Shown here: positions 8,820-54,110 of the stretch, piece by piece
How positions within the stretch are numbered: position 1 is the first letter of the stretch
Layout of the letters: every line of letters begins with the position of its first letter
NCBI GenBank assembly: GCA_947631265.1
Contig: CANRKQ010000001.1
Location: 1-61,460, forward strand
DNA from: an uncultured Clostridia bacterium
GTDB lineage: Bacteria > Bacillota > Clostridia > Oscillospirales > Ruminococcaceae
Length of the DNA stretch: 61,460 nt
Direction: 5' to 3'
Translations under genes and position numbers: made by a program
Notes under the pieces: generated by a model
Told to the model about the DNA's origin: nothing
The model's database searches: none
Seen by the model: the letters and a program-made list of their open reading frames with translations, nothing else

Positions 8820-10163
8820 TTAATCTTCAATATATTCATCGCCATACTTTTCAGCCATTCTTTTTCTTGCCTCCTGAAGTCTTTTCAATTCGGCTTGCTT
8901 TCTTTCTGACTTTGTCATCTTTCTGTCTTCATCTTCAGTATCGGCTTTTGCAGGTCTCTGAACGTTAGCCGTACCGTTTTGGTTCTGCTGCATTTCAAGA
9001 GCTCTCTGATAAAACCCTTTTTTCTTCTTTTTCTTAGCGTCCTTCTTTGCCATTTTCTCGACCTTTTCAGGAGTATATATCTTATTGAGAATAATCGTCT
9101 GAATAAGAGAATAGAAAGAAGTAAGCGTCCAGTATAGACCTAAACCTACAGGAAATCTGAATGCAATATAAAAAGAGAATAACGGCATAATGTACAACAT
9201 AAGATTCATACCGCGTCCTGTGGTATTGGCTGTAGGATTATTCTTTTTCTGATAACGCTGCGAAATAAACGTCAGGATTAGCTGGAATAAAAATGAGCTT
9301 ACCGGGATCAACAGATAAAGAGAGGTCCAACTAGGCATTTCGCTCAGAGGGATTCCAAAGAAAGTATAGTCTATTCTTTTCAGTTCCTTGCTGATATCCT
9401 CATCAACAACGTCAAACATCTGTCCGTAACCGTTGTCTGATATTTTAAACATCAAAAGCTGCGGACGTGTATAAAGCTGACTTGACAGCTTTTTGTTATC
9501 TAATAAAAATTCTGTAAATTCCTTACTATCAGGAAAATATTCAGAAAAAACCCTTTCAACGTTTTCAAGTGACTTTTTATAATCATCAGCAGAGCTCTTT
9601 ACTTTGACGTTGTTAATCTTTTCTCCGTCTTCTAAAACCTTCTCTTTGAAAATATTATTCTTTTCACTTTCTGTAAGCTCACTGTAGGTTTTACCTGTTT
9701 CATCTATCTTATGTGCAATAATTATAGTATCGGTAACAAGGTTTTCAGCGTCGGTTATATTTTCGCTTGCAGTGCTTGTAAGACTGAACGAATTTCCGTC
9801 AATATTAGAAACATATTTTAACGGAGCATACACCACCCCGATAATGGAAAACAGAATTACCATAGTAATTATCATCGGCAGGCAGCTTCCCATTGGGTTT
9901 ACGCCCTCTTCAGAATAAAGTTTCATCAACTCTTCCTGATACTTTTCTTTATTATTGGCGTATTTATTTTGTAGTTTTTTCAGCTGAGGCTGGAATTTAG
10001 CCATTCTTGCTACATTTTTCTGCTGTTTAATCTGAAACGGTACAGTTATAAGTTTAATTATAAGAGTGAAAATAATCAGCGCTAAACCATAGTTATTGAA
10101 TATTATATAGCATAGCTTCATCAGATATCCAAGTAATGGTGTAATTAATGGAATATTCCACAT
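8820..10163 (-). CDS. yidC: YidC/Oxa1 family membrane insertase with a large inserted extracytoplasmic loop
   Basis: YidC core elements present: TM1, C1 loop KFQPQLKKLQNKY...GVNPMGSCLP, and C-terminal TMs with GLGLYW. 447 aa, with a basic tail. Confidence 0.85.
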   Translation of the reverse strand: MWNIPLITPLLGYLMKLCYIIFNNYGLALIIFTLIIKLITVPFQIKQQKNVARMAKFQPQLKKLQNKYANNKEKYQEELMKLYSEEGVNPMGSCLPMIITMVILFSIIGVVYAPLKYVSNIDGNSFSLTSTASENITDAENLVTDTIIIAHKIDETGKTYSELTESEKNNIFKEKVLEDGEKINNVKVKSSADDYKKSLENVERVFSEYFPDSKEFTEFLLDNKKLSSQLYTRPQLLMFKISDNGYGQMFDVVDEDISKELKRIDYTFFGIPLSEMPSWTSLYLLIPVSSFLFQLILTFISQRYQKKNNPTANTTGRGMNLMLYIMPLFSFYIAFRFPVGLGLYWTLTSFYSLIQTIILNKIYTPEKVEKMAKKDAKKKKKKGFYQRALEMQQNQNGTANVQRPAKADTEDEDRKMTKSERKQAELKRLQEARKRMAEKYGDEYIED

Positions 10164-15773: not shown

Positions 15774-18070
<2,297 letters not shown>

Positions 18071-18128
18071 TCAGGTTAGATTTAAAACTTATTTATAAAT
18101 CAGACTTTAAATCAAGAAACATTAATAT

Positions 18129-18163
18129 AGGAGGATTGCTCATTACCGAGCATAGTTATAAAT
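18129..18163 (+). promoter_or_regulatory. conserved SD-hairpin-start leader (copy 1): AGGAGGA-T-TGCTC-attacc-GAGCA-N11-ATG
   Basis: Read directly from the sequence. The same architecture occurs at 47545 (+) and at 54110-54077 (-). Confidence 0.55.
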
Positions 18164-18847
18164 ATGAGCAAGGAAATTAAAAAAGATACTTCTTCTGTAA
18201 ATTCACAGCTGGAAGAACTTAAATCGCAAACGGTTGAACAAATCAACGAATCGTTTGAAGAGGTGAATCCAAAGTTAACTTTGGCGTACAATATAAAAAA
18301 TACCGAGGAGGAAGAGGCTTTTATCACCTTTCAAAAAAGATTTGTAGTTAAGTCGAGCATTTTGAAAACTGTCGCTTTTGGAATTTTAGCAATTATGTTT
18401 ATCTATCAAATCATCAAAGCTCCGGACAATTTTGCATCATGGCTTTGCTTTGTAGTATGTATAGCGGTAATATTTATCGTCTGGTATAATCCGGTCAAAA
18501 TAAGAAAAACGCTTATGGAATCATTAAAACCGCTGGAGGACGACAGGTATATTTTCAAGCTGTATGAAAATAAATTTTCAATTGAAACTGTAATTCCGCA
18601 GGAGGAGATAGACCAAGCGATTAAAGACGGCGAAGAGCCTGAAAAAATTCCGCCCAGAGTTGTAAGCTTTAGCGATACAGGGCTTTCTGTTTTGGAAAAA
18701 GAGAATATGTTTGTGATCTTTTTAAAAAAAGAATCAATATATGTTCTGCCGAAAAGATGTATGACAGAATCTGAAATTAAGGAGCTTTCGTTAGTATTTG
18801 AACAAAAGCTTGGTGATGATTTTGAAAAAGAATCAGATCAGTCATAA
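18164..18847 (+). CDS. membrane protein with YcxB-like C-terminal domain
   Basis: Acidic N-terminus, two TM helices (ILAIMFIYQII, WLCFVVCIAVIFIVW), then a YcxB-like tail. The function is unknown. Confidence 0.5.
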   Translation: MSKEIKKDTSSVNSQLEELKSQTVEQINESFEEVNPKLTLAYNIKNTEEEEAFITFQKRFVVKSSILKTVAFGILAIMFIYQIIKAPDNFASWLCFVVCIAVIFIVWYNPVKIRKTLMESLKPLEDDRYIFKLYENKFSIETVIPQEEIDQAIKDGEEPEKIPPRVVSFSDTGLSVLEKENMFVIFLKKESIYVLPKRCMTESEIKELSLVFEQKLGDDFEKESDQS

Positions 18848-40300: not shown

Positions 40301-41308
40301 ATGAATATTTATAGAGGTTCAGGTGATTGCTCAGACAGCACAAACATCAAGTTTTGCAATCCTTGCTGTTCGTCCGTATGCTGTCCGTCAATGATTGCAG
40401 GACCTACAGGCGCAACCGGAGTAACAGGAGCTACTGGTCCTACAGGTCCTACAGGTCCGACAGGACCGACCGGTGCGACGGGAATAGCAGGAGCTGCAGG
40501 AGTAACCGGACCAACCGGTGCAACTGGTCCAACAGGTGCGACAGGACCAATAGGTCCGACAGGTGCTACCGGAGCCGCAGGCTTAGACGGTGCAGCAGGA
40601 GCAACAGGTGCTACTGGTGTAACAGGACCAACAGGACCGACCGGTGCGACAGGAGCTGCAGGCTTAGACGGTGCAGCAGGAGCAACAGGCGCTACTGGTC
40701 CAACAGGACCAACTGGTGCAACAGGACCAATAGGTCCAACTGGCGCTACCGGAGCAACAGGTGCAACCGGAGCAACAGGCGCTACCGGAGTTACAGGTCC
40801 TTCTGGTCCAACAGGTCCTTCTGGCCCGACTGGCCCGACTGGCCCGACTGGTCCTTCTGGTCCTACAGGTCCGGCAGCAGGATTGGCAGCATTCGGAGGA
40901 CTTTATGATGATACTACGGGAGCACTTACTCTTGCAGTAGGAACACCTACACAAGTTCCTCTTTCAACAGCAATGCCTACTCTGGATGTAACCGCAGCTG
41001 ACAATAGCTTAACTGTAGAACAAGGTGGAATATATGAAATAACCTACTCGCAATTGGCATCTGTAGCAGCTGGAGCAACTTTGACATTTGCGGTACGTGT
41101 AAATGGTGTTAATATTCCGGAGACAGAAACTTCAAGAGTTCTGGCTGTTGGTGTAAGCGATTTGTTCAGCGGAAGCGTCATAGTAACTCTTAACGCCGGA
41201 GACGTTGTTGATATGGCTGTTTCTTCGCTGGTTTCAGTAGGAGTAACATTAGGAGACGGTGTTAATGCATCACTTGTTATTAAAAAGATAAGCGATTTAC
41301 CTGCATAA
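40301..41308 (+). CDS. collagen-like (GXT repeat) protein with BclA/C1q-like C-terminal domain; putative exosporium or spore-surface glycoprotein
   Basis: Cys-rich 33-aa N-terminus, 53 uninterrupted Gly-X-Y triplets that are mostly GPT/GAT, and a beta-rich C-terminal domain of about 140 aa. Confidence 0.8.
40400..40876 (+). repeat. 9-nt periodic collagen-triplet coding repeat with an internal 81-nt duplication
   Basis: 53 GXY triplets. An exact 32-nt repeat, gcaggcttagacggtgcagcaggagcaacagg, occurs at 40577-40608 and 40658-40689. Confidence 0.9.
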
Positions 41309-47544: not shown

Positions 47545-47579
47545 AGGAGGATTGCTCATAAAAGAGCAGAGTTTCATCT
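47545..47579 (+). promoter_or_regulatory. conserved SD-hairpin-start leader (copy 2): AGGAGGA-T-TGCTC-ataaaa-GAGCA-N11-ATG
   Basis: Read directly from the sequence. See copies at 18129 and 54110. Confidence 0.55.
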
Positions 47580-49007
47580 ATGTCAATTAAAAAGAAGTTA
47601 TTTGTTATTTACGGTTTACTGATGGTGGGTTTTATTTTTTTGCAGGTTGTTGTTGATATATTTTTTGCAAGCAGGTTTTTTTTATATGAAAGTAAAAAGC
47701 AGATGAGTGAAATTTGCAGCAGCGTAAAAGAGGAATTTCCGGAGTTTGAAAAAACTGATTTAAGTGCTTTTGATGAATACCTCAAAAATATGGACGAGCG
47801 CAGGAATGTAAAAATATTAATTGTAGACAAATCTGATAAAGTTCTTTTCAGGAATCAATTATTAGACATTGATGTTAAACAAAAAAACAAGCTGTCAAAA
47901 AGGTGGAGTGAATTTTTTCACAGTAATATTGATGAACTCAATGACAACAAACAGCATTATGAAGTATTTAAAAATAGAGATGATGCACTCCGCAGGGTCG
48001 TGCTTATGTCAAAGCTTAACGATAATTACTATTTAATTCTCTCACGTTCTCTCAGAAGTATTGAGGACAATGTTCGCATATCGAACAAGCTCATTATAAT
48101 TATCGGGTTGGTTATGTTTGTCATAGGAACAGTTCTTGTATTTATCATAGCTAAAAGAATGTCAAGCTCGGTTATAAAGATTAACTCTGCGGCAAAAAGT
48201 ATAGCGAATCTTGATTTCACCCAAAAGGTTCAGATAAAGGAAAAGGGTGAGATAGGCGAGCTTGCTGATTCTATAAACATAATATCTGACAAGCTGAATG
48301 ACAGTATAAACAGTCTGAAGGACGAGGTCGTTAGCAGAGAGCAGTTAATTCGAGATATGTCGCATGAGCTTAAGACTCCGATTGCGGCTGTTAAAGGTTA
48401 CGCAGAAGGTTTGAAGTACGGTGTAGCAAGCGGTAAAGAGAAAGCAGAAAAGTATTATGATGTAATAATCAGCCAGTGCGATGTAATGGACAACTTAGTC
48501 AAGTCAATGCTCACCTTATCAAAAATGGATAATATAAAAGGCAGTATTGAAAAAAATACATTTCTGATTTCTGATTTTAATGATATAATCAAGCAAAGCT
48601 TTGAGATAAAGCTTATGGAGAAAAAGATAAACTTTATAACAAATGATTATGAGGACAAAGAGATCAGCGCAAATTTTATGCTTTTGCAGCAGGCAGTTTC
48701 AAACTATGTGGATAACGCCGTAAGATACGCTGACGAGGGCGGAACAGTCGAACTTAATTATATCTGGGAGAATAACGGTATCAAGATTACTGTATTCAAC
48801 ACCGGCGAAACAATCGATGAATCAGAGCTTGAGCATTTGTGGAATGTATTTTATAAGGTTGACAAGTCGCGCACGCAAAACGGAACTGCTAATTACGGTG
48901 TAGGACTTGCAATAGTAAAGAAAATTGCTGATATCCACAAGGGAAATGTATGGGTTAAAAATTGCAAAAACGGTGTAATGTTCGGTATATTTATTCCCCA
49001 GCCATGA
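47580..49007 (+). CDS. sensor histidine kinase (two TM, HAMP, HisKA, HATPase_c)
   Basis: H-box MSHELKTPIAA, plus N, G1 and G2 boxes (NAVRY, GVGLAIV). Confidence 0.9.
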   Translation: MSIKKKLFVIYGLLMVGFIFLQVVVDIFFASRFFLYESKKQMSEICSSVKEEFPEFEKTDLSAFDEYLKNMDERRNVKILIVDKSDKVLFRNQLLDIDVKQKNKLSKRWSEFFHSNIDELNDNKQHYEVFKNRDDALRRVVLMSKLNDNYYLILSRSLRSIEDNVRISNKLIIIIGLVMFVIGTVLVFIIAKRMSSSVIKINSAAKSIANLDFTQKVQIKEKGEIGELADSINIISDKLNDSINSLKDEVVSREQLIRDMSHELKTPIAAVKGYAEGLKYGVASGKEKAEKYYDVIISQCDVMDNLVKSMLTLSKMDNIKGSIEKNTFLISDFNDIIKQSFEIKLMEKKINFITNDYEDKEISANFMLLQQAVSNYVDNAVRYADEGGTVELNYIWENNGIKITVFNTGETIDESELEHLWNVFYKVDKSRTQNGTANYGVGLAIVKKIADIHKGNVWVKNCKNGVMFGIFIPQP

Positions 49008-51869: not shown

Positions 51870-51944
51870 TGGTGACCCGTACGGGAATTGAACCCATGAT
51901 TCCGCCGTGAAAGGGCGGCGTCTTAACCTCTTGACCAACGGGCC
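51870..51944 (-). tRNA. tRNA-Glu (anticodon UUC), CCA encoded
   Basis: Manual cloverleaf: GGCCCGT/ACGGGTC acceptor stem, anticodon loop CTTTCAC, T-arm ACGGG-TTCAATT-CCCGT, then ACCA. Confidence 0.9.
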
Positions 51945-51947
51945 GTA

Positions 51948-52024
51948 TGGTGGCTGTAACTGGATTTGAACCAGTGACACTCCGGGTATGAACCGAATGC
52001 TCTAGCCAACTGAGCTATACAGCC
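51948..52024 (-). tRNA. tRNA with CAU anticodon (elongator Met type; Ile2/lysidine not excluded), CCA encoded
   Basis: Manual cloverleaf: GGCTGTA/TACAGCC acceptor stem, anticodon loop TTCATAC, T-arm ACTGG-TTCAAAT-CCAGT. Confidence 0.8.
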
Positions 52025-53632: not shown

Positions 53633-54076
53633 CTACATTTTATTTTTGGCAAACTCATTAAGATGGGAGGAAATCTCTAAAGCTTCATCACGGTTCAAAA
53701 AGCAAAAAATCATTCTTCCGCCCCACGCGTTTACAATTATGAAGTTTAATGCCGTCAGCTTTGAAAACGGAGTGATAATTGTCGATATATATTGAATAGC
53801 CCGTATTTTCATAAACTGATTTGAGAAAAATATCATACCTGTTTTTTTCCTTAAATCTGATTCGGAAATGTTATAGACTGTGTTTCTAAAGTAAACGGGA
53901 AGAAAAAAAACTCCGTATAAAATAGCAGTTCCCCAGCATATGCAGATTATAATCCACATAATAATATTATGGTCTTTTAAAAATATATGACTTATTGCCG
54001 TAACGGCTGCAGCTAAAACAAATATGATAATTCTGATAGAATTTAAAGCCTTTCTAGATGGAACATATCTTTTCAT
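53633..54076 (-). CDS. YdbS-like membrane protein (bPH_2 domain)
   Basis: Two TM helices followed by a PH-like domain. Start is preferred at Met10 (54076), by analogy with the shared leader motif. The track start at 54103 directly abuts the SD. Confidence 0.6.
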   Translation of the reverse strand: MKRYVPSRKALNSIRIIIFVLAAAVTAISHIFLKDHNIIMWIIICICWGTAILYGVFFLPVYFRNTVYNISESDLRKKTGMIFFSNQFMKIRAIQYISTIITPFSKLTALNFIIVNAWGGRMIFCFLNRDEALEISSHLNEFAKNKM

Positions 54077-54110
54077 GGTGTGACTATGCTCCGTTAAGAG
54101 CATTCCTCCT
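54077..54110 (-). promoter_or_regulatory. conserved SD-hairpin-start leader (copy 3): AGGAGGA-A-TGCTC-ttaacg-GAGCA-N10-ATG
   Basis: Read directly from the reverse complement of 54077-54110. Confidence 0.55.

Follow-up and report, generated by a model that had tools for sequence, protein, structure and literature searches.

Results

Three leader copies in the window

The DNA analyzed here (the window) is a 61,460-nucleotide (nt) stretch of an uncultured Clostridia bacterium (contig CANRKQ010000001.1, assembly GCA_947631265.1). It corresponds to the replication-origin region of a Clostridia genome with low GC content and has the genes dnaA, dnaN, recF, gyrB, a YcxB-like gene, and gyrA in this order. 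The subject of this analysis is a leader found upstream of the YcxB-like gene and two other genes, in which a Shine-Dalgarno (SD) sequence is separated from the start codon by a hairpin. The pattern AGGAGGA-W-TGCTC-N6-GAGCA-N10/11-ATG occurs exactly three times in the window, compared to zero expected. Searching with the 24-nt pattern and allowing up to two mismatches gave three matches compared to 0.00 expected from 100 shuffles. The palindrome TGCTC-N6-GAGCA alone marks the same three sites (0.08 expected), and it never occurs without the SD in the window. The copies lie where the original prediction had placed them, at 18129-18152 (+), 47545-47568 (+), and 54110-54087 (-), with ATGs at 18164, 47580, and 54076.

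The strength of SD pairing was compared using duplex energies with the Firmicutes consensus anti-SD, which is assumed for this clade. The best duplexes in the near range (-4 to -20) of copies 1, 2, and 3 are -2.2, -4.1, and -3.3 kcal/mol, respectively, whereas most other window genes have -8 to -13 kcal/mol. These values bear out the earlier claim that none of the three genes has another SD in the normal range. A far SD in the absence of a near SD is found only at the three leader genes among the ~48 genes of the window. The distance from the end of GGAGG to the ATG is 28-29 nt at all three copies. Conservation continues past the stem as GAGCA-K-AGT, three bases beyond those originally listed.

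The YcxB-like protein downstream of copy 1 (locus 1) begins with MSKE.., an N terminus common to its orthologues. Copy 2 is located 37 nt 3' of a response-regulator gene, and its downstream product is a HAMP/HisKA histidine kinase. Copy 3 has a predicted free energy (dG) of -7.2 kcal/mol for the 18-nt hairpin alone and -8.2 kcal/mol for the SD-to-ATG segment. Its leader is also present in the orthologues at L014, L025, L038, L050, and L054 (L-numbers denote compared loci outside the window). The features of the three copies are collected in Table 1.

Table 1. Positions and properties of the leader features in the window
Feature	Position	Strand	Remarks
Copy 1, distal SD AGGAGGA	18129..18135	+	Anti-SD duplex -10.2 kcal/mol (the gene's strongest upstream) vs -2.2 kcal/mol in the normal range
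Copy 1, hairpin TGCTC-ATTACC-GAGCA	18137..18152	+	5 bp stem, 6-nt loop; predicted dG -6.4 kcal/mol, z = -7.8; compensatory changes in orthologues
Copy 1, 11-nt A/U-rich spacer and ATG (18164)	18153..18166	+	YcxB-like gene 18164-18847; Pfam YcxB
Copy 2, distal SD AGGAGGA	47545..47551	+	Far SD -11.1 vs near -4.1 kcal/mol
Copy 2, hairpin TGCTC-ATAAAA-GAGCA	47553..47568	+	Predicted dG -6.6 kcal/mol; leader also in histidine kinase orthologues L021, L035, L058
Copy 2, 11-nt spacer and ATG (47580)	47569..47582	+	Histidine kinase gene 47580-49007
Copy 3, distal SD AGGAGGA	54104..54110	-	Direct sequence match
Copy 3, hairpin TGCTCT-TAAC-GGAGCA	54087..54102	-	6 bp, one of them U·G; 7 bp when the flanking A-U is counted
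Copy 3, 10-nt spacer and ATG (54076-54074)	54074..54086	-	YdbS-like small membrane protein gene 54076-53633

Distribution of the leader

The exact pattern was scanned against one genome per species in 185,579 species. There were 63 matches, and ~36 of these are in nine rabbit-gut metagenome-assembled genomes (MAGs) named "uncultured Clostridia bacterium Lapin-...". The window shares ~77-80% nucleotide identity with the syntenic stretches of the Lapin MAGs, and its genome therefore belongs to a related but different species. The remaining matches are scattered singletons located in coding DNA of unrelated phyla. Further copies in relatives had been anticipated, and they exist in all nine MAG species. 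The number of copies is small for a genome-wide family, with 2-7 exact copies in each MAG.

The copies are tied to start codons, as proposed. All 36 readable lineage copies precede a gene when any start codon is allowed. A strict test that required an ATG 5-12 nt downstream opening a non-embedded open reading frame (ORF) was passed by 27 of 35 lineage copies compared to 1 of 58 matches elsewhere. Scans of viral and JGI metagenome sequences served as a negative control. They returned 43 further matches attributable to chance and no new members; all 43 are in coding contexts of mostly higher GC (0.37-0.72) and lack the A/U-rich spacer plus ATG. A covariance model was then run against 485 kb of clade DNA and returned 44 members at 26.6 bits or above, with the next match at 16.4 bits. 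It found no members beyond the known ones in these 485 kb. The family is discrete, because the model separates its 44 members from noise. Near-miss copies with one to three mismatches were not detected at gene starts in 311 kb of clade DNA.

The leader precedes at least 17 unrelated gene families. These include FtsQ, VanY, a SleB-like hydrolase, sortase, a CHAP protein, an ABC permease, histidine kinase, and bPH-type membrane proteins, and the leader-bearing genes may be biased toward cell-envelope functions. Copies are also located upstream of PlsX, GalU, IspA, EngB, transketolase, and an RpiR regulator. The association with membrane proteins noted for the three window genes thus does not extend to the family. 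Many copies are at operon-internal junctions, 7-58 nt 3' of the upstream stop codon, and others are at operon starts.

Spacing and conserved context

The spacing between GGAGG and the start codon is bimodal in 311-485 kb of clade DNA. Ordinary genes have 7-10 nt, with a mode of 8, and leader genes have 26-30 nt, with a mode of 29; no intermediate spacings occur, and a stable hairpin is located directly 3' of the SD in every long-spaced case. Over 43 distinct leaders, the medians are 29 nt for total spacing, 17 nt for hairpin length, 10 nt for the post-hairpin segment, and 11 nt for the unpaired total. The last value agrees with the effective spacing of about 11-12 nt estimated in the original prediction, and it is the spacing of bacteriophage T4 gene 25. 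The predicted hairpin dG over the same leaders has a median of -8.3 kcal/mol and a range of -5.2 to -11.6 kcal/mol. The hairpin is 13-20 nt long, starts 0-4 nt after the SD, and usually has the form UGCUC(Y)-loop-(R)GAGCA. Its 5' arm is mostly pyrimidine-rich (CUCC-like) and its 3' arm is purine-rich (GGAG-like), resembling an SD:anti-SD duplex. Between GAGCA and the start codon is an A/U-rich spacer that measures 10-11 nt in most copies and 5-12 nt overall. Its length differences among orthologues are not multiples of three, and the spacer is therefore non-coding. Loop indels in the main subfamily are balanced at other positions, which keeps the total at 28-29 nt (L041, L045, and L074).

Sequence conservation extends outside the hairpin. 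The SD is often the 9-nt GAAAGGAGG, in which CGAA at -4 to -1 extends AGGAGGA. Other conserved positions are AAAA at -11 to -8, a loop pattern Y-U-N-A-M-R, and U-A-R after the stem. The CGAA/AAAA context is absent from the canonical SDs of the same genomes. The anti-SD duplex has a median of -14.0 kcal/mol for the long-spaced SDs compared to -11.5 kcal/mol for the canonical SDs (p = 0.005, with copies that are not phylogenetically independent and the assumed Firmicutes anti-SD).

Several sites share the layout and carry other hairpins. L051 (-, index 397) has AGGAGGA-AAC-GCTCA-ACT-TGAGC-N12-ATG with a total of 29 nt before a small membrane protein gene, and L027 (+, 6350) has GGAGG-TAA-GCCC-TAAG-GGGT..-ATG with a total of 26 nt before a GatC-like gene. 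The parB gene of Hominimerdicola, which is outside the clade, has GGAGG-A-AGTTC-ATACG-GAACT-TTATCCGC-ATG (L070, ~15880-15923, -) with an unrelated stem and a spacing of 24 nt. The parB sequence suggests a possible hairpin-bridged ribosome binding site (RBS), and the architecture may extend beyond the TGCTC family. A second conserved palindrome, TGCTCC(T/C)CCGAGCA followed by TAACTA.., is found at orthologous positions in three MAGs (L025, 1831; L038, 5355; and L050, 1295), and it is not attached to an SD.

Compensatory changes in the hairpin

An exact-match search cannot reveal variation in the five outer base pairs, and so a motif-blind set of orthologues was used. Orthologues of the locus-1 protein were gathered by protein similarity, ignoring the leader. 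The window, L075, and L076 have UGCUC/GAGCA. In L074 (76% amino acid identity to the window), the hairpin is UGCUCU-UUAUG-AGAGCA and the spacer is one nt shorter. L079 (74%) is like L074 except for AGGGCA, which changes U-A to U·G. L072 (82%) has AUACUCC-UUGA-GGGGUAU, a G-C to A-U replacement plus one U·G, and L077 (80%) has UAUCCC-AUAC-GGGGUA. The stem of L080 (~75%) is wholly different, GCCCG-CUU-CGGGC, and the total spacing is 24 nt with the 11 unpaired nt kept. In all, there are six different stems among the locus-1 orthologues. L078 (77%), Ruminococcus sp. (52%), and Hominimerdicola (43%) have no hairpin and an ordinary SD 4-6 nt from the ATG. The leader is rearranged in L064 (75%), where positions 9900-10000 contain GGAGAGGA, then an A/T-only hairpin (AATTAA..TTAATT), and then a second SD-like sequence, GAAAGGA, 13 nt from the ATG.

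Paired changes are found at other genes as well. The CHAP-domain gene has a double change, UGCUC..GAGCA in L062 compared to CGCUCC..GGAGCG in L045. In the ABC permease leader, L005 and L031 have C-G as the sixth pair, and L028 has U-A. Within the exact-match set, the sixth pair is C-G in 19 copies, U-A in 7, and U·G in 2. The compensatory stem changes called for by the original prediction are therefore present in orthologues of the locus-1, CHAP, and permease genes. In an alignment of 42 sequences, 86.7% of the cells are paired and four of the seven pairs have double changes. With a value of 0.178, the covariation score is higher than in any of the 500 shuffles or any slid control. Tallied over the leaders, G·U pairs (~10) outnumber A·C mismatches (~3), which points to an RNA structure formed by the sense strand. 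The leader is a real, conserved, lineage-restricted RNA element.

Rejected candidates and neighboring features

Several other functions were considered for the leader. An intrinsic terminator or attenuator was rejected; there is no U tract, the post-stem spacer is A-rich, and only copy 2 scores terminator-like. The GGAG of the 3' arm is not the true SD, since its spacing would be 12-13 nt, outside the clade range, and GGAG is absent in the AGAGCA and CGAGCA copies, including locus 1. A switch between SD, anti-SD, and anti-anti-SD, in which CUCC of the 5' arm pairs with the SD, would have a 4-bp alternative that is far weaker than the main hairpin by a rough estimate. At locus 1, UUGCUCAU (18136-18143) can pair with AUGAGCAA (18164-18171) over the start codon (8 bp, minimum free energy -8.9 kcal/mol). 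This helix is limited to locus 1, is not conserved in the orthologues, and is probably incidental. A 37-codon ORF at 18067-18180 (+) begins within an ATGA that overlaps the gyrB stop codon, spans the leader, and terminates shortly after the YcxB-like gene has begun. One public contig has it as a called gene (L075, 9904-10017); the ORF is not conserved in the spacers of L072, L074, and L080 and is probably spurious.

Rfam had no family match for the leader at gathering or permissive thresholds, and nothing was near threshold at 18060-18220. The only Rfam matches in the window are two adjacent tRNA genes at 51873-52024 (-). Neither a promoter nor a terminator was found between gyrB and the YcxB-like gene in the window. 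The position of the YcxB-like gene (18164-18847) between gyrB and gyrA is kept from the clade to Ruminococcus sp. and Hominimerdicola (Oscillospiraceae) (L064-L080). Window gene 40301-41308 (+) has highly self-similar internal repeats. Its counterpart in L058 starts MNIYRGSS.. and contains GPTGxTG collagen-like repeats, and the SD of this counterpart, GGAGGAATGCT-TTAT-ATG, resembles the leader minus the hairpin.

Discussion

A proposed hairpin-bridged ribosome binding site

Bacterial start-site selection is thought to need an SD located 5-10 nt from the start codon, and to our knowledge the few departures from this in which the spacer contains a hairpin are individual phage genes. We favor, with moderate confidence, the interpretation that the three sites in the window are members of a lineage-specific, multi-gene bacterial family of split RBSs like that of T4 gene 25. 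The sequence features of a split translation initiation region are found here. The SD is far outside the functional range, the hairpin is predicted to be stable, its arms show compensatory change, and there is no alternative near SD. In this mechanism, the 30S subunit would anchor on the unusually strong distal SD ~29 nt before the start codon, and the folded hairpin would be kept outside the mRNA path. The ~11 unpaired nt would bridge the SD helix to the P site, which the ~10 nt after the stem could reach, and the AUG would be selected. The post-hairpin spacer of 10-11 nt is ~2-3 nt longer than the canonical 8-nt spacer. This extra length fits bridging because it would be expected if the strand exits on the far side of a helix stacked beside the SD duplex. 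The sequence comparisons show the anatomy, the bimodal spacing, the conservation, and the compensatory stem changes; from these we infer that initiation uses the distal SD, that the ribosome-bound hairpin remains folded, and that there may be a regulatory purpose.

The closest precedents are in phage T4. An intervening hairpin cuts the SD-AUG spacing from 27 to 11 nt in T4 gene 25 and from 22 to 5 nt in gene 38 (PMC3014915; Nivinskas et al. 1999; Malys & Nivinskas 2009). The T4 split initiation region was verified by mutagenesis, with stem mutations lowering translation, and the gene 25 hairpin is present in close relatives only (PMC3014915). The reduction from 27 to 11 nt in gene 25 is similar to the reduction from 28-29 nt to a median of 11 nt here, and both hairpins are kept in close relatives and absent in distant ones. 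T4 genes 25 and 38 are single phage genes that each have their own hairpin, whereas here one conserved module is found upstream of at least 17 unrelated chromosomal families. The SD is also much stronger here (up to 9 nt), and the function of the present leader is predicted from sequence. The layout was known earlier from the two T4 genes and not as a bacterial multi-gene family. A literature search for bacterial multi-gene split-RBS families found only the T4 and thrS cases.

The hairpin of Escherichia coli thrS is the operator for threonyl-tRNA synthetase (ThrRS) and is located upstream of a normally spaced SD-AUG, whereas the hairpin described here is between the SD and the AUG. In the thrS split RBS, the ribosome contacts two single-stranded segments of the mRNA and accommodates the folded hairpin that separates them (Sacerdot et al. 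1998; PMC3936740). RNA thermometers and riboswitch platforms also have a small hairpin within the translation initiation region. In those systems, the SD or the AUG is inside the helix, whereas here both are outside the conserved hairpin.

Four considerations weigh against bridging as the full explanation. First, the 11-13 unpaired nt plus the width of the helix exceed the clade optimum of 8 nt, and initiation may be inefficient. Second, the 28-29 nt total of the main subfamily seems to be kept at least as well as the unpaired length, and a pure loop-out model does not require a constant total. Third, a structural spacer leaves unexplained the 10 stem nt, the W position, and the upstream AAAA..CGAA shared across at least 17 families. 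A factor or the ribosome could recognize the shared stem and context, a small cassette could have spread them, or they could be frozen from a common origin; strict sequence recognition is weakened because the stems of the locus-1 orthologues can change. Fourth, orthologous copies are not independent, which makes the covariation statistics optimistic, and the apparent sequence conservation is inflated because exact matching was the source of most copies.

Alternative explanations

The shared sequence could have a function of its own. In one view, which we consider unlikely, the leader is a portable, sequence-specific initiation module of ~45 nt, AAAA..CGAAAGGAGGA-W-UGCUCY-loop-RGAGCA-UAR. In its hairpin, the 5' arm is pyrimidine-rich and resembles an anti-SD, and the 3' arm resembles an SD. 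The hairpin would be stacked on the SD:anti-SD helix and recognized either by a clade-specific factor or by the platform of the ribosome. The module would provide a second, regulated mode of initiation for a small, envelope-biased regulon.

It is likewise unlikely, although compatible with bridging, that the leader serves as an operator for translation. The SD plus hairpin would be recognized in trans by an RNA-binding protein or small RNA of this clade, and the genes carrying it would form a post-transcriptional regulon, perhaps of cell-envelope genes. Such recognition would account for what at least 17 unrelated families have in common: an identical stem, the position of W, the UAR tail, and AAAA..CGAA upstream. 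It also fits the discreteness of the family, both in the gap between the 44 members at or above 26.6 bits and the next match at 16.4 bits and in the lack of copies with one to three mismatches at gene starts in 311 kb. Many targets are envelope-related (FtsQ, VanY, the SleB-like hydrolase, sortase, CHAP, GalU, IspA, PlsX, histidine kinase, and the bPH-type proteins), but the targets also include housekeeping cytoplasmic proteins (EngB, transketolase, and GatC with a different stem). The locus-1 orthologues tolerate wholesale replacement of the stem (L072, L077, and L080), which argues for structure over recognition of sequence, and no candidate factor was identified.

The distal SD might instead act on mRNA stability. 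GAAAGGAGG is reportedly the STAB-SD sequence of Bacillus thuringiensis cry3A. That element is located >100 nt upstream, has no fixed register to the AUG, and belongs to a gene with its own proximal SD. In both cases GAAAGGAGG would be too distant from the start codon to support normal initiation; the present leaders have a fixed register of ~29 nt and lack a proximal SD. A stabilizer or processing module of this type would have a 30S subunit bound at the strong SD and the hairpin shield the downstream message from 5'-to-3' decay once it has been processed, and initiation at the AUG would be largely SD-independent via the A/U-rich spacer. The presence of the reported STAB-SD sequence in many copies is consistent with this function, as are leader SDs that are stronger than ordinary ones, the many operon-internal copies 7-58 nt after the upstream stop, and the lack of a detected promoter or terminator from gyrB to the locus-1 gene. 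However, a stabilizer needs no fixed distance to the start codon, and the register here, as tight as that of canonical SDs (28-29 nt in most copies), argues for a function in initiation. It would also leave these genes with no other SD in a clade that otherwise uses strong SDs. We regard a stabilizing function as quite improbable.

A dispersed mobile or gene-converted RBS cassette, with a hairpin that is tolerated or mildly useful, is very unlikely. It could explain why ~45 nt are identical or similar before unrelated genes, why the locus-1 leader varies among close relatives (absent in L078 and rearranged in L064), and why a single clade among the 185,579 species scanned has the leader. The loops and spacers differ between copies of one genome, however, and give no sign of recent copying. 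The SD and stem are kept across species with ~77% identical syntenic DNA while the flanks diverge. No inverted terminal repeats or target duplications were seen, and the fixed register to the ATG indicates selection.

The remaining two explanations can be dealt with briefly. TGCTC-N6-GAGCA is a perfect 5-N6-5 palindrome, the layout of CRP/Rex-type sites, but a DNA operator for a dimeric transcription factor is strongly disfavored because the palindrome is always fused to an SD, gene-oriented, and at a fixed distance from the ATG, inside operons as well as at their starts and with no conserved promoter elements, and because its arms covary, use G·U pairs, and are replaced in L080. The leader peptide ML(I/L)(T/K)E(H/Q)S.., which the original prediction raised as an alternative and which would be opened by the TTG or ATG abutting the SD, is refuted as a conserved feature: the three window copies do encode similar peptides, in short ORFs as described (14 codons at locus 1 and 12 at locus 2, both out of frame, and sharing the main frame at locus 3, where the ATG at 54103 opens it), but the loop introduces in-frame stops in L004 (TTG CTC CGA TAG), L025 and L054 (ATG CTC TTT TAA), and L050 (ATG CTC TTG TAA), the last three being orthologues of copy 3; the loop sequence varies freely; the frame relative to the main ORF shifts with spacer length among orthologues; the WTG codon is lost in L072, L077, and L045 (-); and the SD-to-WTG spacing is 1 nt.

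Significance

Hairpin-bridged initiation in this clade would have consequences for annotation and for the study of initiation. Gene finders and RBS calculators that seek an SD within ~15 nt will score the leader genes as lacking an SD. Starts may be misassigned as well, for example to the in-frame ATG at 54103 or to the spurious 37-codon ORF at locus 1. The more than 40 leaders in one bacterial clade, with their natural compensatory variants, are a ready test set for the interaction of the 30S platform with structured spacers. If a factor does recognize the shared stem, the leader would define a new post-transcriptional regulon.

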